A stretch of DNA of 64,000 nt from positions 1 to 64,000 of IMG/VR virus record IMGVR_UViG_3300033074_001936. One strand, given 5' to 3'. Position 1 is the stretch's first letter. Each line of letters starts with the position of its first letter. Below are positions 4,057-42,729 of the stretch, piece by piece. Source of the DNA: a virus (taxonomy: Duplodnaviria > Caudoviricetes). The notes below the pieces were generated by a model that worked only from the letters and a program-made list of their open reading frames with translations, was not told where the DNA came from and did no database searches. A program made the position numbers and the translations under genes.

Positions 4057-4584
4057 GTGATCGAGCGGGCGGTGAGCAAGAGGGTGGAGCGGCGGGGAGG
4101 AGCCCGGCCGGGCGCGGGCAAGCCCAAGGGATCGGTGTCGGAGGCGACCCGCATCGCTCGCATACGCGCCGAGCAGACCGGCGAGCTGCCGCACGAGCTC
4201 CTCCTCAAGTGGGCGCGCACGGGCCGCATGGCATTTCCGCGCCGCACCGGGAAGACGACAATCGTGGATTTGAGCCCGCAGGATCGCATCACATGCGCCC
4301 GCGCCTGCGCCGCCTACTATCGCGCCCCATATCAGGCGCGCCCCATGCCGGGCGAGCAGCCGCCGGTGGTCCGCGTCGAGCTCGATCAGGAGATGGTGGC
4401 GGCGCTGGCGGCCAAGTCCCCGGACAAGCTCGAGGTGCTGCGCGATGTCCTCAAGTCCCTGCAGTCGGGGGGAGGGGTTCTCGAGGCCGCGGCTTCATCG
4501 CGCAGCAACAGTGCGCTGGCCGGTGCCCCGAACCGCTACGGGCAGATGCTGAGCGAGACGTCGGATGTGGAGGGGCGGGCATGA
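4057..4584 (+). CDS. terS: Terminase small subunit (putative)
   Basis: RGGARPGAGKPKGS N-terminal motif; AGGAGG at 4045-4050 before GTG; upstream of terL. Confidence 0.7.
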   Translation: MIERAVSKRVERRGGARPGAGKPKGSVSEATRIARIRAEQTGELPHELLLKWARTGRMAFPRRTGKTTIVDLSPQDRITCARACAAYYRAPYQARPMPGEQPPVVRVELDQEMVAALAAKSPDKLEVLRDVLKSLQSGGGVLEAAASSRSNSALAGAPNRYGQMLSETSDVEGRA

Positions 4585-4886
4585 GCGATCCAGTCGTAGA
4601 AAAGTATCGGGACAAGACCGACCCCGAGCACGTCAGGGCGATGCAGGCGATCGGCGTGGCCCGGATGATGCTCGCGCAGCACCGCGACAGGTACCATGCG
4701 CTGGAGCGAGCCGAGCGCGAGATGCACTCGTTCGGGGGCATGATCGACCCGACGCTCTACCGGGACATGCTGTCCAGCAAGAACTTCGCGCAGCAGGTGC
4801 GCATGGTGCGGGCCGTGCTGGCCTTCCTCGAGGCGGTCGACGCGATCGCCGAGGAGGAGTGCCTTGCGGAGGGCGCGCCTACTTGA
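4581..4886 (+). CDS. Hypothetical protein
   Basis: ATGA overlap with terS; overlaps terL start. Confidence 0.6.
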   Translation: MSDPVVEKYRDKTDPEHVRAMQAIGVARMMLAQHRDRYHALERAEREMHSFGGMIDPTLYRDMLSSKNFAQQVRMVRAVLAFLEAVDAIAEEECLAEGAPT

Positions 4887-6724
4887 CCCACATCGACGCC
4901 TCGCAGGCGCTGTACGCGGTCGAGCAGGCGATCGCGGGCCGGGTCTTGCGCCGCGCGCTGCCCCCGCCGCGGGTCCTCGACCGCGCCGAGTGGCCCCCGA
5001 ACTACGCGCGGGTGCAGGCCTGGCGTCAGCAGCAGCTCACCAAGTTCGAGCAGGACCCGGGGCTGCTCGCGGAGGCCCGGGACTGGTACGCGGGCCGTGA
5101 CCTCACCACCGCCAAGTGCGCCGACCCCAAGAAGTGGGCCGAGCGCTGCTGCGCCTTCATCTGCCACTGGGTCGATACCTACGACCCGCGCAATGCCGGC
5201 AAGCCCGGCATGGCCGCGCGTATGCCCCTCATCTTGTTCCGGCGCCAGGCCGAGCTCGTCGAGTTCATCTTCGCGTGCGTGCTCGGGGACGCGCCGGGCC
5301 TCGCGGAGAAGGCCCGCGACATGGGTGCGACCTGGGTCGGGATCGGGGTCACCCTATGGATGTGGCTGTTCCAGCCCGGCACGGCGATCGGCTGGGGTGC
5401 CAACAAGCTCGAGCTCGTGGACGTCCTCGGGGACCCGGACACGATCATGGAGAGGCTCCGCCAGACCATCCGCCTCCTGCCGGACTGCTTCCGCCCGGCG
5501 GTTGAGGACGGGGTGCACCTCAAGCACAAAGTCTGCCGCAACCCGGACAATGAGTCGGTCGTGTCGGGCCAGGGCGGCAAGGAGATCGGCCGCGGGGGTC
5601 GCCGCCGCCTATACTTCGTGGACGAGGCCGCCCACGTCGACAACCCGGTGGCGATCGAAGCCTCGCTTTCCATGAACACGCGCTGCCGCATTGACATCTC
5701 CTCGGTGTCTTCCCCGGGAACGGTGTATCACCGCAAGCGACTCGCCGGCAAAGAGTGGCAGCCGGGGGCGGCAGTAGTCACTGACTGCGTTAATGTGTTC
5801 GTCATGGACTGGTCCGATCACCCGGAGAAGACCAAGGAGTGGTACTCGGAGCGCCGCCGGTTCTACGAGTCGCAGGGCACCCCCGAGGTCGTGGCGCGCG
5901 AGATCGACCGGGACTACATGGGCGCCGCGCAGGGCATCATAATCAAGTATGAGTGGGTCGAGGCCGCGGTGGACGCGCACCGGGTTCTGGGGCTCGACGA
6001 CTCGGGCGGCTGGTGGGGCGGGCTGGACGTCGCGGACGAGGGGGTCGATACCAACGCTCTAGTGCGGGGGCGCGGTATCGTGGTCCGCCACGCCGAGGAG
6101 TGGGGCGACCGCGACCCGGGGGCGACCGCGCGTCGCGCCTTCCGCCTGTGCCGGGACACCGCGCCCATCATCTTGCAGTATGATTGCATCGGGCTCGGCA
6201 CCAACATCAAGTCCGAGTTCAATCGCCTCACCCAAGACGACGCGCTCGATGTGAGTTGGATCAGCCTGACCCCGTGGAATGCCGGGGCCGCAGTCCTCGA
6301 CCCGGGCATGCCGGTGATTGCCGGGGACCATCAGTCGCCGACCAATAAGAACTATTTCGAGAACTTCAAAGCGCAGGCCTGGTGGAATGTCTCGCGAATG
6401 TTCTATCGCACTTGGCAGGCTGTGCAAGCGGCCCGCGGGGAAGCCGATGCCGCGGAGGCGGGCGAGCTTGACCCGGGCAAGCTCATATCCCTGGACTCGA
6501 AGACGATCCCCGCGGCGACGCTGACCAAGCTCATGCGCGAGCTGTCGCAGGCCACCATGGGGCAATCGAGCCGCCTCAAGCTCTTGGTGAATAAGGCCCC
6601 GGACGGCGCGAAGTCGCCGAACCTCGCCGACGCGTTGGTCATGGGCCGCTTCCCCGCCCGGCGCGGGCCGGCGGGCATGCTGCCCGCGGGAGGGGCGCTC
6701 GGTCCTAAAATGTTCATCGGATGA
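4883..6724 (+). CDS. terL: Terminase large subunit
   Basis: Walker A EKARDMGATW, GRGGR, Walker B YFVDEAAH, nuclease motifs GLDVADEGVD and SPNLADAL; TTG start at 4883 inferred. Confidence 0.92.
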   Translation: MTHIDASQALYAVEQAIAGRVLRRALPPPRVLDRAEWPPNYARVQAWRQQQLTKFEQDPGLLAEARDWYAGRDLTTAKCADPKKWAERCCAFICHWVDTYDPRNAGKPGMAARMPLILFRRQAELVEFIFACVLGDAPGLAEKARDMGATWVGIGVTLWMWLFQPGTAIGWGANKLELVDVLGDPDTIMERLRQTIRLLPDCFRPAVEDGVHLKHKVCRNPDNESVVSGQGGKEIGRGGRRRLYFVDEAAHVDNPVAIEASLSMNTRCRIDISSVSSPGTVYHRKRLAGKEWQPGAAVVTDCVNVFVMDWSDHPEKTKEWYSERRRFYESQGTPEVVAREIDRDYMGAAQGIIIKYEWVEAAVDAHRVLGLDDSGGWWGGLDVADEGVDTNALVRGRGIVVRHAEEWGDRDPGATARRAFRLCRDTAPIILQYDCIGLGTNIKSEFNRLTQDDALDVSWISLTPWNAGAAVLDPGMPVIAGDHQSPTNKNYFENFKAQAWWNVSRMFYRTWQAVQAARGEADAAEAGELDPGKLISLDSKTIPAATLTKLMRELSQATMGQSSRLKLLVNKAPDGAKSPNLADALVMGRFPARRGPAGMLPAGGALGPKMFIG

Positions 6725-6795
6725 GGATGGCAGGCCATGTCGCGAAAGCCGACCATCGCGCTGACTTGTGATTGAATTTTCAGGTGGGCTAACCA

Positions 6796-6978
6796 ATGAT
6801 CTCCGATTTGATTGTTAATCCAAACCTTCAGTTGGTTTTGATCTGGGCGCCGCCGGCTGTGCTATTCTTGCTCGGGCTATATTACTTTTTGAGGTCGGGA
6901 CCGATTTCCGGCAGCCCGCAGGCGATTGAGTCCAACGCAATGGGTAAGCCGTCATCGAATGCATGCTTATCCGGTTAA
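6796..6978 (+). CDS. Small membrane protein
   Basis: One hydrophobic segment; low GC. Confidence 0.4.
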   Translation: MISDLIVNPNLQLVLIWAPPAVLFLLGLYYFLRSGPISGSPQAIESNAMGKPSSNACLSG

Positions 6979-7004
6979 CACACACAAACGCTGAGGCATA
7001 CTAG

Positions 7005-7394
7005 ATGTTGATCCCGTTTGTTGATCGAGATGGTGCCACGCACTTCACCTGTGAGGATTGCGGGCGCTCAGTCCTCGCAGCCTACGAGACTAAGACCTGC
7101 GTTTGTCTGTCTTGCCAGTTTGTCCGCGACCACTCTCTGTCAGAAAAACCATTACAACCTTCGGACAGAGCTGGTTTTGGTTGGATCAATTCTGCCTTAG
7201 CCGCCGGCAGCACGCCCTACCCCTGCGATGTCATTAGGATGGAGGGCGAGAACGAGGTTCTTGAACTGTACGGGCCCTGGTTCCCCGAAGAGGCTTGTCC
7301 CGGCCACGTCGCCAGCAAGAGCGATCCAAAGGTTTGCGGTCGATGCGGCATACATATCGACAGCCTTCGACCCCCTGAAGAGGATGAGCCATGA
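7005..7394 (+). CDS. Cys-rich hypothetical protein (possible Zn-binding)
   Basis: CEDC, CLSC, CPGH, CGRC motifs. Confidence 0.55.
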   Translation: MLIPFVDRDGATHFTCEDCGRSVLAAYETKTCVCLSCQFVRDHSLSEKPLQPSDRAGFGWINSALAAGSTPYPCDVIRMEGENEVLELYGPWFPEEACPGHVASKSDPKVCGRCGIHIDSLRPPEEDEP

Positions 7395-7579
7395 AAAATC
7401 CGCTGCCTTACCCCTTGCGCGCCACTCGTATCTCTCTGGAGCTAAACCCCTTTGGTTTCTGGCTTCTGCCAAGCGCGAGCTTTCGACGCGACCTAACCGA
7501 AGTCGCCAAAGCCGACGGCGAAACTATCTGGTGGGTTCGATGGGCATGGTTCCAACTCAGTTTTGGTCGCTGGCGATGA
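7391..7579 (+). CDS. Hypothetical protein
   Basis: ATGA overlap; aromatic-rich 62 aa. Confidence 0.5.
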   Translation: MKNPLPYPLRATRISLELNPFGFWLLPSASFRRDLTEVAKADGETIWWVRWAWFQLSFGRWR

Positions 7580-7757
7580 CCACAATATCTAGGGCTGTGT
7601 GTCTAAACCGGATAAGCATGATCGAATGGTGGTGGAAACCCTTCCATCACGTCACGCAATCAAAGCGGTGGAATCACGGCCCATACAGTCAGTGGCGGCC
7701 CATCGTGCGGCCCGGCGCCCGTTGACGTACCTCCGGGATAGAAAGGATAACTTGCAC

Positions 7758-10442
7758 ATGCTCGCCCCCATGAATAAAGCCGCCCCCACATTCATGCAGC
7801 GCTTGGTGGGGCTCGTTACTTCGACTCCGCGCGCCAAGCCGTTCTCGGAGATGGGCGTGTCCGGGACGCCCATATACGGGGGGTACGTACAAACGCGTGA
7901 GAAGTCATCGGGGTGGATGGGCGCGCAGCGCTACATCACTATCTCCGACATGGCGGTCAATGCATCTATTGTCGCTGCGGGGGTGCATTACTTCCTCAAC
8001 TTGATCGCGCGCCCGTCGTGGACGGCTCAGCCCGCCGACGAATCCGCCAAGGCCAAGGAGCTCGCGGAGTTTGTCGACGCAGTCCTGCATGACATGCGGC
8101 GCCCGTGGCCGCGGGTGGTGCGCCGGGCAGGCACGTATCGGTTCTTCGGCTTCGGCGTTCAGGAGTGGACCGCCAAGCGCCGCCCGGACGGCAAGATCGG
8201 ATTGGCGTCGGTCGAGCCGCGCCCGCAGCACACAATCGAGCGATGGGCGCTGGACCCTTCCGGGAAAGTTGAGGGCGTGTTTCAACGCGATCCGTCGACG
8301 GGGCAGGAGCTCGGCATTCCGCGCGGCAAGATCATGTACTTGGTCGAAGATGCGATCTCGGACTCCCCGGAGGGAGTCGGCATCTTCCGACACCTCGCCG
8401 AGCCGTGGGAGCGCCTCAAAGTTTACATGGAGCTCGAGGCGCGCGCATTCGAGCGCGACTTGCGGGGCATCCCGGTCGGCCGCGTGCCATACACTCTCCT
8501 CAATGCGGCAGTCAAGGCCGGCGAGATCGACGCGGCCAAGGCCGCCTCTATGAGCCGCATGCTCGAGGACTTTGTGCAGCTGCAAGTGCGCCAATCGAAC
8601 ACGGCGATCACGCTGGACTCGGTTCCTTATTACTCGCAGGCGGCGGACGGCTCCAAAGTTGCCGGCATGCCTCAGTGGGGGCTCGAGCTCTTGCAGGGCG
8701 CGGCGCAGGGGGTGGAGGCCATCGCCGCCGCAATCACGCGCACGCAGATGGAGATGGCGCGCATCTTGACCTGTGAGCACCTCCTCATGGGGGCGGACGG
8801 CTCGGGCAACAGGGCGCTCTCGGAGGACAAGTCCCGCAACCTGTACTTGGTGGCGAATGCCGTGCTGGCGGACATCGCCGAGGCCGCCACCCACGACCTG
8901 GTCGAGCCGATCTGGCTCCTCAACAGCTTCCCGGATGAGCTCAAGCCGCGGCTCGAGGCGGAGGATGTCGCATTCCAAGATGCCGACACGGTCGCGGCGA
9001 CGCTGGCCAAGATGGCGCAGGCGGGGGCGGTGCTGGCGCCCGACGATCCGGTCATCGAGGATGTGCGCGCTCTCATGGGCGTCTCCCCGCCCGCGCCCAT
9101 CCCGCCCGAGCTCGTGGGCATGAAGGGGCCGGAAGATAATGAAGACGGGGGAGAGGTGAAAGATGAACCGTCAGCTGATGCCGATGATGCTGAGATCGAA
9201 GAAGGTGGGCTGGAGAAGGCATTTGACCCGAACCAACCGCGGCATCCTCCAGGCTCACCCGAGGGGGGTCAGTGGGTTAGTTCTCGCGGGAGTGTAGAAG
9301 TATTTCACGGCACCACTGATAATGTGATCGAAAGTATCTTGGCGGGAGGTATACGTGCTCAGCCTGGGGTGGATAATTTTGCTTTTGTTGCGCGCGCGGG
9401 TGGGGAATCTGCGGTATTTGTGACGAACTCCCAAAAGAACGCCCTCGCGTACGCGCGAGCGGCCCAGAATGGTTTTGCCGAGCGGTATTGGGATGCGCAT
9501 TTTGAAGAGGCCGAGGCAATACAGGAAGCACTGCGTCGGAAGTATGGTTCGGTCAAGTCGCAGGAGTTTGGCGGCCCCGTTCCCGCAGCTGAAGCTTATC
9601 CTTTTTTGAATAAAGTTCCAGGCTTGCCTTCAATCGCCGTTGTTCACGCGCGTATCCCGAAGGCGGAGTGGGCGAAGTTCAAGCACGATAGAGAGAGTTT
9701 GGCTCCATCTAAGTATGGCAGGAGAATCAAACCGGAGTGGATTAAATCTATCAAAGTGCGAAAGCCCGGATCAAAATTGACTAGTATATTTCAGAAAGAG
9801 CTTGATAATGGGGAAATCTATTTTGTGATGTTATTTGTAGAGGAAGGGGGGTTGAGCAAGCGCGCGGCCCAGGCCGGTCGGGAGGCCGTCGCGCAGCTCC
9901 GCGGGCTGGGGAAGGCCGCGGGGCGCAAGACTCTCTACGTCAAGCGCCGCCTCCTCAACCCGGAGGACGTGCGGGCGTGGGCGGCCGCGCAGGGCATCGC
10001 GTCGACCCTGCGCCCGGACGACATGCATGTGACTGTCGCATTCTCGCGCGAGCCGGTCGACTGGTCGAAGATTGAGCTCGAGACGGACGCGGTCGTTGTC
10101 TTGGATGACGGGGTGGAAAAGCGCGCGGTCCATCAGTTCCCGCCCCGGTCCACCCCCAACGGCGCGCTCGTCCTCAAGTTCGAGTCGCCCGAGCTCCGCG
10201 CGCGCTGGCAGTACTTCCGCGACGCGGGCGCGTCGTGGGACTTCCCGGAGTACCAGCCGCACGTGACCATCACCTACTCGGTCCCGCAGGCCGATGTTGG
10301 CGCGATCGAGCCGTACCGCGGGCCGCTGATCTTCGGCCCCGAGGAGGCGTCCGAGGTCAACGACGACTGGGCGGGCGAGCTCGTCGAGGAACCGACCAGT
10401 ATGATCTCGGTTGAAGACCGCTGGGTGCCGCAGGGAGGGTAG
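7758..10442 (+). CDS. Portal protein fused to an ADP-ribosyltransferase-like domain and a C-terminal Acb1-like 2H phosphoesterase
   Basis: Follows terL; portal-like N-terminal ~450 aa (FERDLRGIPV, GNRALSEDKS); FDPNQPRHPPGSPEGGQW linker; VFHGTT/AVFVT..ALAYA; two HxT motifs (MHVTVAFS, PHVTITY); AAGGA before ATG 7758. Confidence 0.85.
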   Translation: MLAPMNKAAPTFMQRLVGLVTSTPRAKPFSEMGVSGTPIYGGYVQTREKSSGWMGAQRYITISDMAVNASIVAAGVHYFLNLIARPSWTAQPADESAKAKELAEFVDAVLHDMRRPWPRVVRRAGTYRFFGFGVQEWTAKRRPDGKIGLASVEPRPQHTIERWALDPSGKVEGVFQRDPSTGQELGIPRGKIMYLVEDAISDSPEGVGIFRHLAEPWERLKVYMELEARAFERDLRGIPVGRVPYTLLNAAVKAGEIDAAKAASMSRMLEDFVQLQVRQSNTAITLDSVPYYSQAADGSKVAGMPQWGLELLQGAAQGVEAIAAAITRTQMEMARILTCEHLLMGADGSGNRALSEDKSRNLYLVANAVLADIAEAATHDLVEPIWLLNSFPDELKPRLEAEDVAFQDADTVAATLAKMAQAGAVLAPDDPVIEDVRALMGVSPPAPIPPELVGMKGPEDNEDGGEVKDEPSADADDAEIEEGGLEKAFDPNQPRHPPGSPEGGQWVSSRGSVEVFHGTTDNVIESILAGGIRAQPGVDNFAFVARAGGESAVFVTNSQKNALAYARAAQNGFAERYWDAHFEEAEAIQEALRRKYGSVKSQEFGGPVPAAEAYPFLNKVPGLPSIAVVHARIPKAEWAKFKHDRESLAPSKYGRRIKPEWIKSIKVRKPGSKLTSIFQKELDNGEIYFVMLFVEEGGLSKRAAQAGREAVAQLRGLGKAAGRKTLYVKRRLLNPEDVRAWAAAQGIASTLRPDDMHVTVAFSREPVDWSKIELETDAVVVLDDGVEKRAVHQFPPRSTPNGALVLKFESPELRARWQYFRDAGASWDFPEYQPHVTITYSVPQADVGAIEPYRGPLIFGPEEASEVNDDWAGELVEEPTSMISVEDRWVPQGG

Positions 10443-12073: not shown

Positions 12074-12517
12074 ATGTTCGTCGTATTCGACCTGGACGGG
12101 ACGCTGTCGTTGAACGCGCACCGCCAGCACTTCCTCGAGCAGGTGCCCAAGCGCTGGGACGAGTGGCACGCGGCCTGCGCCGAAGATCCCCCATGCCTGC
12201 CGGTCATCGAGACGCTCCGCCTCTACTACGCCGCGCGACCGGCGCACCGGGTCGAGATCTGGTCCGGCCGCTCGGACGTTGTGCGCCGGGAGACCGAGCG
12301 TTGGCTCCTCCAGCAGGGCATAAACCCACTCCTCCTCAAGCGCATGCGCCCGGCAAAAGATCATCGGCCCGACGTCGACCTCAAGCGCAAGTGGCTGTGC
12401 GAGGCCCGGGCAAATGGGGGCGCTCCCGACCTCGTCTACGACGATCGGGATCGGGTCGTGGCTATGTGGCGTGAAGAAGGCGTGCGCTGCTTTCAGGTCG
12501 CCCCGGGGCCGTTTTGA
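12074..12517 (+). CDS. HAD phosphatase (polynucleotide kinase/phosphatase C-terminal type)
   Basis: FDLDGTL, SGR, D.RPD..LK, YDDR..VV.MWR...CFQVA. Confidence 0.85.
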   Translation: MFVVFDLDGTLSLNAHRQHFLEQVPKRWDEWHAACAEDPPCLPVIETLRLYYAARPAHRVEIWSGRSDVVRRETERWLLQQGINPLLLKRMRPAKDHRPDVDLKRKWLCEARANGGAPDLVYDDRDRVVAMWREEGVRCFQVAPGPF

Positions 12518-36560: not shown

Positions 36561-37125
36561 ACCGCGTCGGGTCATCATCGTCGGCCGCGCGCGGGGGGCG
36601 CTCGCGGAGTATGCGGCGGCGCGCGCAATGGCGCACTTCGATGAGATCATCGTGGTCGGCAAGATGGGAGAAGTATTCCCGGATGAGATCGATTATTGGG
36701 CCTCATTTCATAGCAATTTATTCGACCGCTGGGCCGCCCGCCGGGCGGCCAACAACTTGGCCCCGGCCGGACATTATTGGGGCGGCATCTACAACGGCAA
36801 GCGCATCGGTGCCGGGCAGGTGAAGTGCGAGCCAATCACATGGGTGTCGACCAGCGGGGGTTCATCGGGCTTCCTGGCACTTGAGGGTGCGCTGAGCATA
36901 TTACAAGCCGAGCGCATTGTGCTCGCCGGCATTCCCATGGATGCGGAGGCATCTCATGAGCCGGAGGCGAGCGAGGCGGGAGAAGATGGGCCGTGGCGTG
37001 AGGCGCATTTGTATTGGGCAACGTGGGAGGCGCGCATGGAGCAGCTGCGCGGGCGTGTGCGCAGCATGAGCGGTCGCACGCGCGCGGCGCTCGGCGCCCC
37101 CACATCCGATTGGCTCCGCGAATGA
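36547..37125 (+). CDS. Putative Maf/DUF115-like (sialyltransferase-type fold) protein
   Basis: VIIVG, YWASFH, GGSSGFLA, RIVLAGIPMD, VRSMSGRT pattern; family call by eye. Confidence 0.5.
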   Translation: MMMSEPRRVIIVGRARGALAEYAAARAMAHFDEIIVVGKMGEVFPDEIDYWASFHSNLFDRWAARRAANNLAPAGHYWGGIYNGKRIGAGQVKCEPITWVSTSGGSSGFLALEGALSILQAERIVLAGIPMDAEASHEPEASEAGEDGPWREAHLYWATWEARMEQLRGRVRSMSGRTRAALGAPTSDWLRE

Positions 37126-38114
37126 GCGCGGCTGACCTCCGGCGCATTGAGCAACTCCTCGCGCGCGCGGAGGCGCGGGTGCGGCGCGCGATCCGACGCT
37201 TCCTTGATGATGCCCGTTCCCCGGAGATCATGCGCCAAGTGCGGCGCATGCTCGAGCGCGGAAGCATCGAGGAAGTGCTGCGCATAGTCGATTCTTACTC
37301 GGCGCGGGTCGGGGAGGCGATCCCGGACATCTTCATATCGGCAGGTGCCGGCGAGATGGAGGCGCTGGCGGAGCAGCTGCGGCGTCAGGGGGTGCGCTTG
37401 GGCTTGTCATTCGATCCCTCGCATCCGCGCGCCGCCGAGCTCATGCGGCGCAACCGCCTCGAGTTCATACGTGAATTTACTAGAGCGCAGCGATTGACAG
37501 TCCGGGATGCGCTCGCCGAAGCCCTCCAATCGGGGCTCGGTCCCATTCAAGCGGCGCGGGAGTTCCGTGATAGCATTGGGCTCACGCAACATCAGCGACG
37601 TTCGGTCGCCAACTATCGGCGCTTGCTCGAGGCGGGAGATGTGGCTGCGCTCGAGCGCGATTTGCGCGACCGGCGCTTTGATTCCTCTGTGCGCCGCGCG
37701 CTTCGTGATGGAGAGCCGCTCGGGGCGGAGCGCATAAGGCGTATGGTCGCCCGCTACCGGGAGCGCTTCTTGCAGTATCGGGCGGAGGTGATCGCGCGCA
37801 CAGAGTCCCTGCGCGTCCTACATCAGGCACGAGAAGAAGCACTCAGCCAAATCGTCGAGGACATCGAGCTGCCGCCCGGAGCCGTGCGCCGCGTCTGGGC
37901 ATCGACTCGCGACAAGCGCGTGCGGGATACCCATCGCGCCATGGACGGCCAAGTCCGCGCCATGAATGAGCCATTCGACAGCCCGTCCGGCGCGCGCCTG
38001 CCGACCCCGGGAGACGGCTCGCTCGGTGCCCCGCCCGGGGAGCTCATCAACTGCCGCTGCGTTGTACTCATACAAGTATCTACTCGCGATGTTCGTCTGC
38101 TTAAAGAACTTTAA
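37122..38114 (+). CDS. Head morphogenesis protein (SPP1 gp7/Mu gpF-like)
   Basis: RAEVIARTE, W.STRD.RVRDTH..MDGQ, PGD, INCRC. Confidence 0.9.
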   Translation: MSAADLRRIEQLLARAEARVRRAIRRFLDDARSPEIMRQVRRMLERGSIEEVLRIVDSYSARVGEAIPDIFISAGAGEMEALAEQLRRQGVRLGLSFDPSHPRAAELMRRNRLEFIREFTRAQRLTVRDALAEALQSGLGPIQAAREFRDSIGLTQHQRRSVANYRRLLEAGDVAALERDLRDRRFDSSVRRALRDGEPLGAERIRRMVARYRERFLQYRAEVIARTESLRVLHQAREEALSQIVEDIELPPGAVRRVWASTRDKRVRDTHRAMDGQVRAMNEPFDSPSGARLPTPGDGSLGAPPGELINCRCVVLIQVSTRDVRLLKEL

Positions 38115-38278
38115 TAAACCACTTAATTTGCATACCAGCCTCCAGGCTACTTGAATTGCCAAGTCATGCGGGCTGCATGGCGAGGAGGCCGGGGAGTTTT
38201 TCTTCGCGCCTCAATGGCGGTAGCTTGAGAAACCTCCCCTCGCGCACCCGCCCTCTCGCCTCATCCCGCACGTCGGAT

Positions 38279-38401
38279 GGTGGCGGCTCCTGCCCTCAGA
38301 GGCGGGGCACTTCCCGTCCCCCCAGGCCCCCGCCGTGAGGGACAAGATATCGCTCCGGGAACATTCCCTCGAGTGCCTCAGGCGCGATGGGGGCCGCCAC
38401 C
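38279..38401 (+). ncRNA. Candidate structured RNA leader (multibranch) upstream of the protease gene
   Basis: 12-bp closing stem 38279-38290/38390-38401 enclosing three 5-bp stems; ends 11 nt before the RBS. Confidence 0.35.
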
Positions 38402-38429
38402 GGACCTCGGAAGAAGGATTTCTCTGCAA

Positions 38430-39050
38430 GTGCCTTGGAAGACGAACACCGAGCTGCCTGAGTCGATCAAGTCGGCGCTCCCGGCCGATGCTCAGTCGCG
38501 CTTTCGCTCGGTCGCCAACGAGCGCATGCGCGCGGGTGCGAGCGAGACCTCGGCCATCGCGCAGGCTTGGCACGTGGTCAAGCAGGGCTGGGAGAAGGCC
38601 GCAAGTGGAGGCAAGTGGGTGCGCAAGCAAGATCATCATGGCGACGAGCCGGAGTTCCGCAAGGCGGAAGTCGTCAAAGTCAGCGACGAGCTCGGCTTGG
38701 TCTTCGGGCTCGCAATTGTCTGCAAAGTGGACGGCGCGCCCTATTTTGACTTGCAGGGCGACCACATCCCCGAGGATGCGATGCTCAAGGCGGTGACTGA
38801 CTTCATGATCCACAGCCGGGTCGCGAAGGAGATGCACAGCGGCAAGCAGATCGGGGATGTTGTATTTGCGTTCCCGCTCACGCAGGAGATCGCGGACTCG
38901 CTGGAGATCACGACCAAGTACACCGGCTGCCTCGTCGCCATGAAGCCCTCCCCCGAGGTGCTCGCGAAGTTCAAATCGGGCGAGTACTCCGGCTTTTCGA
39001 TCGGCGGCAAGCGCCTGCATGATGAAGAAGCCGAGAAGGGTGCCTACTAG
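38430..39050 (+). CDS. ChaB domain fused to an XkdF-like prohead serine protease
   Basis: MPW..N.ELP.SIK..LP..AQ..F / AW..VK..W.K..GKW (ChaB); LVFG, DLQGD.I, KEMH, GEYSGFSIGG; GAAGGA before GTG. Confidence 0.82.
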   Translation: MPWKTNTELPESIKSALPADAQSRFRSVANERMRAGASETSAIAQAWHVVKQGWEKAASGGKWVRKQDHHGDEPEFRKAEVVKVSDELGLVFGLAIVCKVDGAPYFDLQGDHIPEDAMLKAVTDFMIHSRVAKEMHSGKQIGDVVFAFPLTQEIADSLEITTKYTGCLVAMKPSPEVLAKFKSGEYSGFSIGGKRLHDEEAEKGAY

Positions 39051-39221
39051 ATGCCTGCTCCCACCAAAGAGCCCGACAACCGGCACACCCTCCCGCCGCT
39101 TCGGACTTACCACATTCCCGGCGGTCCACTCGCGAAGAACTTGGGAGAAGTCGAAGTCATCAAGCTGGCGGAGATCGTCCGCGGCGGCGAGGGTGATGCC
39201 GGCTACGGAGATAAGAGGTAA
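39051..39221 (+). CDS. Small hypothetical protein (56 aa; not in the ORF track)
   Basis: ATG directly after the protease stop; open to TAA 39219-39221. Confidence 0.4.
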   Translation: MPAPTKEPDNRHTLPPLRTYHIPGGPLAKNLGEVEVIKLAEIVRGGEGDAGYGDKR

Positions 39222-39226
39222 GAGAG

Positions 39227-40513
39227 ATGGCTGATCGCGCGCGCTCGAGCCGCAAGAACATCATGCGGGAGTTCGTAATCAACGAGCTCTCCGCGGTCGA
39301 CCGGCCGGCGCAGGCCCACGCCCGCGCCGTCATCATGAAGCGAGATGATGGAGGCGTCGGCAAAGACGTCGGCAAAGACTATGATTCTCCGGCCGTTGTC
39401 GCCCTCGCGACGGTGGGGCGGAAGGTGCGCGCGATGGACTTCGATGAGGTCGTCGCCGAGCAGGGGTCGCGGGAAGCTGCAGAGCGCGTCCAGAGCTGCG
39501 TCCGCACAAAGTGGCAGGCGCTCCAGCGTGCGTTCGACAGCATTGCTGCTGATGAGTCGCTGGCTCCCGCCGACAAAGTGGGCGCCATGCGTGACTCTGT
39601 CGGACAGTTTCTTGACGCCGTGCGGGCGGAGTCCGAGGCAATCGCCGATGCCATCACCAAGTCTCTAGCCGCAGTTCCGGCACTTGCCGAGCTGCTCGAC
39701 CAAGTCGGCAACGAAGGAGATGAACCGATGACCGACGCCGAAAAGAAGCAGCTCGCCGAGATGCAGAAGACTGTCGCCTCCCTCAAGGCGCAGCTCGAGG
39801 CGGCATCCGCCGATGACCCGGCCAAGAAGGCGGCCGAGCTGCAAGATGCGCTCGACAAGGTGCAAATCGAGCTGGCCGATCTCACCAAGAAGCTCGAGAC
39901 TTCGGAAGCCGAGAAGGCATCGGCGCTGGCGAAGGCCGGCATGTCCGATGCCGAGAAGGAATATCTCGCCGGCTTGTCGGGCGAGGACAAGGTCAAGTTC
40001 ATGCAGGCATCGCCGGCCGACCGCAAGAAGATGATGGCCAAGGCCGCGGATGCGGACCCGATCATCTACAAGGCCGCTGATGGGCAGGAATATCGCGGCA
40101 GCGATGATCCCCGCCTGGTCGCCATGGCCAAGCGCGCCGATGAGATGACGAAGCGGGCCGACGAAGAGCGGACTGCTCGCGAGACTGCCGAGCTCACCAA
40201 GCGGGCCGACGACTTCCTCAAGGCCTTCGCCGGCGACTCTGCGGAGAAGGTCGAGGTCTTGCGCGCTATCGCCAAGATGACGGATGAGCCGCGCAAGGCG
40301 CTGGAGAAGATGCTGGAGGCCGGCGGCAAGGCCATCGCCGCGGCGTTCCAGACCATCGGCCGCGCGTCGGGCGAGCTGAGCAAGAGCGCCGCCGACTTCA
40401 ACAAGCGGGTCGATGAGATCCAGAAGCGCGACAACTGCTCGCGCGTCGACGCCATGTCCAAGGCGCGCATCGAGGACCCGGCGGCCTTCGAGGCCATGCA
40501 GGCGTCGAACTAA
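39227..40513 (+). CDS. Scaffolding protein with an N-terminal protease-like strand
   Basis: INELSAVDRPAQ; long A/E/K-rich coiled coil; upstream of the capsid genes. Confidence 0.7.
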   Translation: MADRARSSRKNIMREFVINELSAVDRPAQAHARAVIMKRDDGGVGKDVGKDYDSPAVVALATVGRKVRAMDFDEVVAEQGSREAAERVQSCVRTKWQALQRAFDSIAADESLAPADKVGAMRDSVGQFLDAVRAESEAIADAITKSLAAVPALAELLDQVGNEGDEPMTDAEKKQLAEMQKTVASLKAQLEAASADDPAKKAAELQDALDKVQIELADLTKKLETSEAEKASALAKAGMSDAEKEYLAGLSGEDKVKFMQASPADRKKMMAKAADADPIIYKAADGQEYRGSDDPRLVAMAKRADEMTKRADEERTARETAELTKRADDFLKAFAGDSAEKVEVLRAIAKMTDEPRKALEKMLEAGGKAIAAAFQTIGRASGELSKSAADFNKRVDEIQKRDNCSRVDAMSKARIEDPAAFEAMQASN

Positions 40514-40540
40514 CCCCCGGCGAGGAAAGGAACAGCACTC

Positions 40541-40918
40541 ATGTCCATCCAGAAGATTGACGAGGCATTCACGTACGCGGAGAACGCGGGCGCGGACTTG
40601 TCCGAGAAGCTCCACTTCTTCGCCAAGATCGACACCGATGGCGACATCGTGCTCGCCGGCGATGGCGGGCCGGTTGCCGGCGTCATCATCGAGTCGGCGG
40701 CGGAGAACTATCCCGTTTCCATCGCGTTCGGCGCCATCGGCAAGGTGATCTGTGCCGAAGCGATCACTCCGGGGGCGATCATCGCCTCCGACGCCGACGG
40801 CAAGGCGGTTGCGGCGGCGGCCGGCGACTGGATCGTCGGCATCGCCATCAACAAAGCCGCCTCCACCGCAGGTGACCTCGTTCCGTTCATCTTCGCGTCC
40901 GGTCGCCGGCACGCATAA
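40541..40918 (+). CDS. Capsid decoration/cement protein
   Basis: Small Gly/Ala-rich beta protein (SDADGKAV..A..GD) just before the MCP. Confidence 0.7.
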   Translation: MSIQKIDEAFTYAENAGADLSEKLHFFAKIDTDGDIVLAGDGGPVAGVIIESAAENYPVSIAFGAIGKVICAEAITPGAIIASDADGKAVAAAAGDWIVGIAINKAASTAGDLVPFIFASGRRHA

Positions 40919-40949
40919 CCCCTGATTAACTCAAACAGGAGACCCCGCG

Positions 40950-41936
40950 ATGCCCGCGAGTAACATTCGAGGCACCATCCACGTCGACCGGTACCTGACG
41001 AACTTTTCTCTGGCCTGGATTCAGAGTCAAGTTCACTTCGTCGGGCGTCGCGCGTCGACCATCATCCCGGTCACCAATCAGTCCAACAAGTACGTCGTGT
41101 ATCCGCGCGGCTACTTCTGGCGGGATGAGTCCAAGCCGCGCCCCCTCGGCGGCCGCCCCGTTCAGATCACCTACGAGGTCGGGGAGGGCACCTACTCCGC
41201 GCAGGAGTGGGCGCTCGAGCACCTCATCGACGACCGGCAGCGTGCCAACACCGACGCGCCCATCAACCTCGACGAGAATGCCACGCGGCTCCTGTCGATG
41301 AAGCAGATGATTCGCATGGATCGTCTGTGGGCGGAGAAGTTCTTCGTCCCCGGCGCCTGGACGACCTTGCGCGTCGGCACCGCATCGACGCCCGGCGCCG
41401 GTCAGTTCCTGCAGTTCGGCGACGCGAACTCCGATCCGATCATGACCATCGACGCCGCCAAGGATGCGATGTTCAAGATCACCGGGTTTATGCCGAATAC
41501 GCTGGTCCTGGGATCCGATGTGCGGACCCAACTGCGGAGCCACCCCGACATCGCCGACCGCATCAAGTACACCGGCGTGGGCCTGGCCGATGAGGCCAAG
41601 CTTCAGGAGCTGTTCGACGTGCCGAACGTGGTGACGGCCCGCGCGCTGTACACGACGTCCGCGGAGGGCGCCACCGATGCGTTCGACCACATCGTCGACT
41701 CCAAGTCGATGTGGCTCGGGTACATCGCCCCCTCCCCGGCGCTCGACACTCCGACGGCCATCGCGACGTTCGCGTGGACGGGCCTCCTCCCCGGCGTGAC
41801 CAACGCCCTCGGCGGGGTCATGGAGCGCGGCCGTGATGATCGCGCGCACTCCGACTGGTTCCACAATCGGATGGCGTTCGACATCAAGCAGGTGTCGGCC
41901 GACCTCGGCATCTTCTTTCAGAACGCCGTCGCGTAA
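40950..41936 (+). CDS. Major capsid protein
   Basis: HVDRYLTNFSLAW, PNTLVLG, HPDIADRIKYT; size and position; strong codon bias. Confidence 0.88.
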   Translation: MPASNIRGTIHVDRYLTNFSLAWIQSQVHFVGRRASTIIPVTNQSNKYVVYPRGYFWRDESKPRPLGGRPVQITYEVGEGTYSAQEWALEHLIDDRQRANTDAPINLDENATRLLSMKQMIRMDRLWAEKFFVPGAWTTLRVGTASTPGAGQFLQFGDANSDPIMTIDAAKDAMFKITGFMPNTLVLGSDVRTQLRSHPDIADRIKYTGVGLADEAKLQELFDVPNVVTARALYTTSAEGATDAFDHIVDSKSMWLGYIAPSPALDTPTAIATFAWTGLLPGVTNALGGVMERGRDDRAHSDWFHNRMAFDIKQVSADLGIFFQNAVA

Positions 41937-41960
41937 GCGCGGCCTGCGGGAGGATGAACC

Positions 41961-42347
41961 ATGGTTGCTCAGCAGCGCCGTACGGCGTTTGATCCGGGGC
42001 TGACCTACGAAGTCGCGCGGGAGTTTCGCCTCAACGGCGAGCTCCTGTGCCCCGGAGATGCATTCGACGCGGGCAAGGCTGACCCGCGCCGGATGCGCCA
42101 GCTCTACGACACCAGGCTCATCCGGGCGGCCCCCGGAAGCGATGGGCGGCGGCTTGTTGCCCGCCGGCCCCTCGTTGTCGGGGGGGCGCATTACGCGCCG
42201 GGCGATGCGATCCCCCGTGATGCCGTGAAGTCGGCGGCCCGGCTCTCCCAGCTCATCGCGCGAGGGGACGTCGGCTTGCAAGCTGAGGCGGCGCGCGCCC
42301 GCCCCCGCCCCCGCCCCTCCCCGCGCCGGGCAAGGCTCGAGGAGTGA
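41961..42347 (+). CDS. Virion-associated hypothetical protein
   Basis: Two internal PGDA-containing repeats; RP-rich tail. Confidence 0.6.
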   Translation: MVAQQRRTAFDPGLTYEVAREFRLNGELLCPGDAFDAGKADPRRMRQLYDTRLIRAAPGSDGRRLVARRPLVVGGAHYAPGDAIPRDAVKSAARLSQLIARGDVGLQAEAARARPRPRPSPRRARLEE

Positions 42348-42351
42348 GCGC

Positions 42352-42729
42352 TTGGCGTCTCTCCTTGAGTCCGCGATCAAGGCGCAAGTAGCGTCGGCGT
42401 TTCGTGGCCGCTTGTTGCCCGGCACCCTGCGTCGCGTCCCCTACTCCTCCGTCGATGCGCTCGGCGATCCGACTCCGGGGGCCCCGCAGACATGGTCCTT
42501 CGACGGCATCGTGGACTCGTTCAGCGCATTCTTCGCGGCGCAGGCGGGCATCCCCGCGACCGACTCGCGCATCTTGATCATCGCCGGGTCCCTCGCGACC
42601 CCGCCGCAGAAGGACGACCAAGTGAAGCTCCGCGGCAAGTGGTACCAACTGCGTCGCCTCGTGGAGCAGGACCCGGCGGGGGCGACGTACATCTTCTCTG
42701 GGTATGAGATCGAAGACCCGACTGCATGA
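42352..42729 (+). CDS. Head closure/head-tail joining protein (putative)
   Basis: Position; D.RILI, DPAGATY. Confidence 0.65.
   Translation: MASLLESAIKAQVASAFRGRLLPGTLRRVPYSSVDALGDPTPGAPQTWSFDGIVDSFSAFFAAQAGIPATDSRILIIAGSLATPPQKDDQVKLRGKWYQLRRLVEQDPAGATYIFSGYEIEDPTA

Follow-up and report, generated by a model that had tools for sequence, protein, structure and literature searches.

A viral portal-cargo gene with an Acb1-family phosphodiesterase and an exchanged, probably ADP-ribosyltransferase-fold, middle module

The first 64,000 nucleotides of the IMG/VR virus record IMGVR_UViG_3300033074_001936 (Duplodnaviria; Caudoviricetes), referred to here as the window, contain a portal-cargo open reading frame (ORF) of 894 residues (7758..10442, plus strand) whose single frame holds matches to a portal, a middle module and an Acb1-type enzyme. 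The one portal chain carries two biochemically unrelated effector domains, one resembling ADP-ribosyltransferases (ARTs) and the other a 2H phosphodiesterase. The middle module lies in a segment of foreign codon usage that entered the gene by recent lateral insertion. The best explanation of the whole is a polymorphic portal-cargo, or 'polyvalent', head protein that is cleaved and delivered, an account that we regard as the probable one without pressing it hard. Confidence is high in its domain-level part, and opinion is evenly divided on its delivery part.

The portal and Acb1 domains

The stop-to-stop frame spans 7599-10442, and the ATG at 7758 is supported as the start by P0022, a related portal fusion that opens with identical MLAP residues. 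A database copy of the protein (P0002) is identical to the 894-residue ORF. The original prediction, made from the letters alone, had described a portal, a middle enzyme and an Acb1-like domain in one ORF, and this layout is borne out by domain matches in a single frame. The motifs quoted in it were each found in that frame where they had been placed: FDPNQPRH at 9222, VFHGT at 9300, VFVT at 9414 and HVT at both 10026 and 10260.

The Mu-type portal domain comprises residues 1-457 (7758..9128, plus strand). Residues 84-429 match Portal_Mu/DUF935 (PF06074) with an E-value of 3e-21 and 76.6 bits against a curated threshold of 23.9, covering model positions 25-328 of 336, and PHROG 113 (phrog_113) is matched at E 5e-50. 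Homology to portals reaches residue ~457 (window ~9128); Rhizobium phage portals of ~462 residues are 53% identical, and the solved portals 9mt4 and 9c39 are matched at E 1e-15. By homology to such solved portals, the protein would form a dodecamer at a single vertex of the capsid. The portals of cultured relatives (Rhizobium RHEph19-like, Roseobacter RDJL and Pseudomonas KPP23 phages) are plain and ~460 residues long; the identity of these relatives hints at an alphaproteobacterial host.

The C-terminal domain (residues 725-881; 9930..10400, plus strand) is an Acb1-family 2H phosphodiesterase with HxT motifs at 10026-10034 and 10260-10268. The Pfam family Acb1 (PF23474) matches residues 724-872 at E 3.7e-38 with 130.9 bits against a cut-off of 27, and the other 2H models score far lower (LigT_PEase 19.6 bits, 2_5_RNA_ligase2 16.9 bits). 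The solved Acb1 7t26 aligns with the domain at E 8e-12, and its motifs are matched by H757-V-T and H835-V-T. As sequence matches, the portal and Acb1 E-values are far beyond chance, and the Acb1-like 2H identity that had been proposed for this domain is confirmed by the PF23474 score and the alignment of both HxT motifs to 7t26. The Acb1 of Erwinia phage FBB1 (PDB 7t26/7t27) belongs to the same PF23474 family and has both catalytic HxT motifs aligned, but the T4 and FBB1 enzymes are free proteins of ~150 residues whereas the domain described here makes up the last third of a portal chain. An architectural parallel is portal gp3 of cyanophage Pam3 (PDB 8hds chain A, 621 residues), in which residues 470-615 are Acb1-like (E 3.5e-18 to the domain studied here); it is the portal of a cultured phage and ends in the same type of domain, but it is two-part, lacking an ART module. 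The Acb1-like tail of the portal is not discussed in the Pam3 structure paper (PMC9942802).

Cassette exchange between portal and Acb1

The composition of the gene changes abruptly at the edges of its middle part. The G+C content at third codon positions (GC3) is 0.84 in the portal segment, 0.50-0.51 in the linker plus ART-like module and 0.91 in the Acb1 segment. A maximum-likelihood fit with two breakpoints placed them at 9132 and 9845, giving a GC3 of 0.49 within and 0.87 outside and a log-likelihood ratio (LLR) of 66; the maximum among 60 shuffles was 8.1. The low-GC3 cassette so delimited (9132..9845, plus strand; codons 459-696) takes in part of the acidic linker, the delimiter peptide and the ART-like module.

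A parallel case is found in P0022, the closest relative, which lies on an independent, syntenic JGI contig (L005) with genes for terminase, a sigma factor, ParB, the portal fusion, a PNKP phosphatase, an adaptor and ribonucleotide reductase (RNR). GC3 along its gene runs from 0.96 to 0.68 in the slot between portal and Acb1 and back to 0.97 (LLR 63). The two genes are 64% identical in their portals and 68% in their Acb1 domains, and their middle modules are 39% identical over just 56 residues; the middle module of P0022 is non-orthologous to the one studied here and sits in the same slot with a similar shift in composition. From the GC3 step, the same shift in P0022 and the divergence of the middle modules it follows that the middle cargo is a laterally exchanged cassette, as the original prediction had supposed in calling it swappable. 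The ART cassette entered the linker of a portal-Acb1 fusion by recent lateral insertion, and the portal-Acb1 slot has been refilled from lower-GC donors.

The middle module

The ART-fold module, with H517, F554, Y565, D644 and E660 as its key residues, was delimited to residues 505-694 (9270..9839, plus strand) from a family alignment, structure searches and profile matches. Its identity had been proposed from motifs, a call that needed further evidence because the module has no direct family match. Residues 505-715 gave no meaningful match in Pfam, PHROGs, NCBIfam or PDB sequences, and none at E up to 10 to the Pfam ART models PARP (PF00644), ART-PolyVal (PF18760), Tox-ART-HYD1 (PF15633) and ADPrib_exo_Tox (PF03496). 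Searches with tblastn of the module and its homologue P0003 against 50,697 GenBank phages found no match, and in a word-indexed search of 5.8 billion proteins the sole match was the studied protein itself. When contigs from IMG/VR and the JGI metagenomes were scanned for patterns of the family alignment, no relatives were confirmed, confirmation having probably been hampered by the divergent first sequence. From an exhaustive phmmer search of 1.84 billion cluster representatives no more than nine relatives emerged, all of them weak (E 3e-7 to 4e-4), and these align over the whole length of the module.

Structure searches with the middle module place ART enzymes at the top. With the P0003 model the best scores were those of KptA (5.8), pertussis S1 (5.4) and EcPltA (5.2), members of the ART superfamily made up ~30 of the top 50 rows, and further matches included TreX, DarT, LT, Tpt1, Arr, diphtheria-like toxins and PARPs. 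Foldseek searches against PDB and BFVD were not significant for either model, with KptA/Tpt1 rows at probability 0.3-0.5. The family profile matched only Tpt1/KptA in PDB, over the FHGT motif (E 0.2-1.5). The closest ESM-Atlas clusters were Tox-ART-HYD1 and a PARP-bearing viral cluster (0.92), which is a lead only. The family copy in P0004 exceeds the Pfam PARP threshold (38.4 against 26.7 bits) and is the only relative to do so; the remaining members give weak PARP matches across the His-to-aromatic region. When aligned by hhalign to the ART-PolyVal copy of P0113, only the HGT and aromatic-strand motifs were matched (probability 1.2%).

The pattern of conservation was read from a 12-member family alignment (894-residue numbering). 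In F-H517-G-T the His is invariant; in V-[F/Y]554-V-T the aromatic residue is Phe in the studied copy and Phe or Tyr throughout the family; A-x-x-Y565-A and P634 are conserved; the Asp of F641-x-x-D644 is present in 11 members; and the Glu of I-P-P-E660-W-I is present in the studied copy and in 8 of the 12. The active-site triad would be H517, F554 and either E660 or D644. A helical insertion of ~55 residues (9465..9632, plus strand; the helix prediction is of low confidence) is common only to the studied copy and P0105 and is missing from the other 10 members.

Four weak lines (the structure search, the Tpt1 profile match, the ESM neighbours and the PARP score of P0004) thus agree on a split beta-sheet ART fold with modest strength, and the module probably has an ART fold of the H-Y-[E/D] type and lies outside every catalogued family. 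On this footing the ART identity originally proposed counts as probable. Tpt1/KptA is the nearest solved relative of the FHGT...I...G[IL] motif of the NAD+ lobe and a top structural match, but membership of that family was rejected, because only the NAD+ lobe is present: the matches span residues ~101-180 of 9ld3, and the module starts directly after the linker, where Tpt1/KptA has an N-terminal RNA-binding lobe.

Junction peptides

Each boundary of the middle module carries a similar short peptide. The acidic linker (residues 455-487; residues 455-506 with the FDPNQPRH...GGQW peptide) ends in the heptapeptide EEGGLEK (9198..9218, plus strand) and is followed by the module-delimiting peptide FDPNQPRHPPGSPEGGQW (9222..9275, plus strand), recognised from the recurrence of its motif in related proteins. 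On the far side a second heptapeptide, EEGGLSK (9840..9860, plus strand), contains the 3' GC3 breakpoint at 9845 and leads into a second linker (9861..9929, plus strand; GC3 0.95) that ends in GLGK-AAGRK just ahead of Acb1. In six frames of the 94.9-kb genome EEGGLxK occurs only twice, at 9198 and 9840, once per module junction. Synonymous differences separate the two DNA copies, and the peptide has therefore been kept at the protein level; a recent duplication of DNA as the source of both was rejected, the codons differing at many sites.

Similar peptides are widespread. In 130 related proteins the pattern [FY]-[DN]-P-x-Q-P-R-[DH]...G-[RQ]-W was found in 75 instances, always ahead of a cargo module, and a Lys sits one or two residues upstream of the QPR-type peptide, often as V/L-E-K. 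Among 40 Acb1 junctions, the domain is nearly always preceded by K-A-x-x-R-TLYV, with the Lys ~6 residues before TLYV. No junction motif is mentioned in the paper on MuF polymorphic toxins. A prohead protease (ChaB plus Peptidase_S78_2/XkdF type; 38277..39050, plus strand; PF14550 at E 1.2e-7, phrog_3017) is encoded in the window, and the Lys junctions are predicted to be maturation cleavage sites of this S78/XkdF-type enzyme.

A further peptide, DDGGVGK, occurs at 39347-39367 (residues 41-47 of the ORF 39227-40513), near the N-terminus of a scaffold-like protein adjoining the prohead protease. From its resemblance to EEGGLxK it may be a third site of the same protease.

Related portal fusions

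The 120 best portal relatives, of 491-1565 residues, were compared for their cargoes. Acb1 was found in 38, Zeta toxin in 19 and an ADPrib_exo_Tox ART in 10, and most of the Acb1-bearing portals are two-part proteins of ~650 residues. A local hidden Markov model (HMM) of the new ART-like module was positive in seven. Multi-part forms occur in the same portal clade: P0014 and P0042 are portal-ART-Acb1 proteins with an ART of a different family (R-S-E type), P0113 consists of portal, ART-PolyVal, ADPrib_exo_Tox and Zeta toxin, and the new module is combined with Acb1 in the same order in P0022 and in reverse order in P0021. The original prediction had singled out the three-part form as unusual, which overstated its rarity.

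The new module is also found in polyvalent proteins that are not portals. Seven of 17 distinct proteins with the module bear Acb1 as well. A coupling of the new ART family with Acb1 was considered, but among portals the frequency of 3/7 is not distinguishable from the background of 38/120 and no claim is made. The metagenomic proteins P0004 (1588 residues, four to five copies) and P0011 (639 residues) carry tandem copies, each preceded by a QPRD...GRW peptide, and P0004 additionally bears Acb1 and an ADPrib_exo_Tox ART. In P0005 (263 residues) the ART-like module is fused straight to the second half of Acb1, with one HxT motif; either a deletion gave rise to it or the gene call, made on a contig of 1.1 kb, is fragmentary. 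P0008 and P0010 bear the module on proteins with DUF7178 (PF23802), which may be another head-associated carrier.

Proposed mechanism and alternatives

Portal C-termini face the capsid interior, and both C-terminal modules would therefore sit inside the head, in 12 copies per virion. According to the proposed mechanism the 12 portal subunits would bring their C-terminal cargo into the procapsid, where the Lys junctions (EEGGLEK plus FDPNQPRH...GGQW, and EEGGLSK...GLGK) would be cut by the S78-type prohead protease, and the freed enzymes would pass out together with the DNA at infection. Once in the host, Acb1 would hydrolyse cyclic oligonucleotide signals of the CBASS (cyclic-oligonucleotide-based anti-phage signalling system) type and the ART-fold module, drawing on NAD+, would modify a host target. 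Packaging in about 12 copies, release and delivery ahead of gene expression are suggested by portal stoichiometry and by analogy; packaging stoichiometry, cleavage, ejection, both enzyme activities and the ART target we infer. A bolder extension makes the Lys junction peptides (h-E-K and then FDPNQPRDxxGRW, or, ahead of Acb1, K-A-x-x-R) a grammar of cargo cassettes, serving both as protease release sites that would free 12 copies of each enzyme in the head and as recombination joints for module exchange, and makes the uncatalogued H-[F/Y]-[D/E] ART family a new injected counter-defence enzyme acting alongside Acb1 against nucleotide-signalling immunity. It is put forward tentatively and is rather improbable.

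The principal alternative is that the enzymes are not injected, the fusion serving only to couple their synthesis to late structural expression or leaving them tethered to the portal without a role in the next host. In one variant the domains would act in the producing cell as portal monomers and procapsids build up, when structural proteins commonly trigger CBASS. This deserves to be taken seriously as a minority possibility: the gene sits in a late packaging block beside the terminase, cleavage of the chain is a prediction, and the literature found holds no experimental precedent for the delivery of portal-attached domains. Against this, a Lys-bearing junction peptide ahead of every cargo (the 75 instances and 40 Acb1 junctions above) is hard to explain without processing, and fusion to a protein made in small amounts would serve no purpose for an enzyme required only in the cytoplasm. 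ART, Zeta toxin and 2H cargoes are carried by MuF and further internal head proteins as well, according to PMC5512222. A further doubt concerns the gene itself, for the composition shifts abruptly within one ORF of an uncultured-virus contig and the low-GC middle segment might be an assembly chimera from outside the real gene. That is most improbable, as the frame is intact over both boundaries, both boundaries fall in linkers, and the independent JGI contig of the syntenic relative has a three-part gene with its own compositional step.

Two other readings concern what the enzymes do. Rather than opposing immune signals, the two could repair RNA together, one as a KptA/Tpt1-like NAD+-dependent 2'-phosphotransferase and the other as a 2H cyclic phosphodiesterase, and so counter tRNA-cutting defences. 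Tpt1/KptA enzymes are the best sequence-profile matches of the middle module and among its best structural matches, a PNKP-type phosphatase gene (12074-12517) lies 1.6 kb downstream of the portal fusion, and some phage 2H domains are linked to KptA and ligases according to section 3.4.5 of Iyer et al. 2022 (PMC9503650). The 2H domain nevertheless scores 131 bits on Acb1 against 17-20 bits on the LigT and 2'-5' ligase models, and the module is without the N-terminal RNA lobe, on which most of the Arg-His-Arg-Arg catalytic tetrad of Tpt1 lies. RNA repair is judged quite improbable. Loss of catalysis in the ART fold of the middle module, leaving it to act as a spacer or to bind, for example, NAD-derived signals or a host protein, is likewise unlikely, if a shade less so. 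The Phe in place of the canonical Tyr, the strand-5 Glu that is not invariant in the family and the 55-residue insertion that interrupts the fold would fit such a loss. On the other side, His517-Gly-Thr, the aromatic residue 554, Tyr565 and Asp644 are kept across members that are ~35% identical, as expected of a maintained NAD+ pocket, and PARP-type enzymes without the Glu still mono-ADP-ribosylate.

Genomic context

The source record is linear, 94,914 bases long and ~88% complete by estimate, with a GC content of ~63%. Upstream of the portal gene lies the large terminase gene (719 residues; 4565..6724, plus strand; phrog_2 at E 5e-19), whose product is divergent, with a moderate PHROG match and no Pfam match at E 1e-3. 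The terminase adjoins the portal, and the MuF, protease and major capsid genes are ~27 kb away from the portal at 37-42 kb. The MuF head protein (37014..38114, plus strand; PF04233 at E 1e-15) is without cargo. The head module is split into a block of terminase and portal (4565-10442) and a block of MuF, protease, scaffold, major capsid and head-closure genes (37014-42729), between which lie genes for a sigma factor, ParB, the PNKP phosphatase and a class II RNR and many others. On contig L005 the sigma factor and ParB genes precede the portal; in the studied genome they come after it.

Relation to earlier work

The portal-cargo architecture and concept are already known from work published in 2017 and 2022. 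Iyer, Burroughs, Anand, de Souza and Aravind (2017, PMC5512222) reported fusions of 2H domains with MuF or portal proteins, suggesting that these domains degrade defence nucleotides, and named ARTs as the commonest protein-modifying cargo; both points are restated for portal fusions by Iyer et al. 2022 (PMC9503650). The same logic, with injection of portal-borne 2H and ART cargo, had already been predicted in these papers (sections 9 and 20 of the first, sections 3.4.5 and 3.7.1 of the second). The polyvalent fusions described there resemble the present gene in joining a virion structural domain to unrelated conflict domains in one chain of a terminase-portal phage; unlike them, the ART module studied here matches no catalogued HMM and the gene has no zincin peptidase. 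A junction peptide and compositional evidence of cassette exchange were not found in the searched passages of PMC5512222 and PMC9503650, and a literature search found no experimental paper on portal-fused cargo. What is new here is this ART-like family, the quantitative evidence of cassette exchange in the slot and an explicit junction grammar.

T4 Alt, an ART that leaves the capsid together with the DNA, serves as the working model for such delivery, but it belongs to the R-S-E class, whereas the module studied here belongs to the H-Y-[E/D] class and is joined covalently to the portal chain. Alt is a separate protein, directed to the scaffold core, and the T4 prohead protease trims it.

Implications

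The locus adds an ART-like family that is missing from standard catalogues, and it is a clear natural case of module exchange within a gene, one slot holding different foreign-codon cassettes in two related phages. The conserved short junction peptide is a concrete candidate for a release site, and in Pam3, a cultured phage of solved virion structure whose portal is fused to Acb1, portal-borne Acb1 could be studied experimentally at once. If the enzymes are delivered, CBASS-type signalling could be disarmed and host proteins modified before the phage had transcribed any of its genes, and models of the first minute of phage-host conflict would change.

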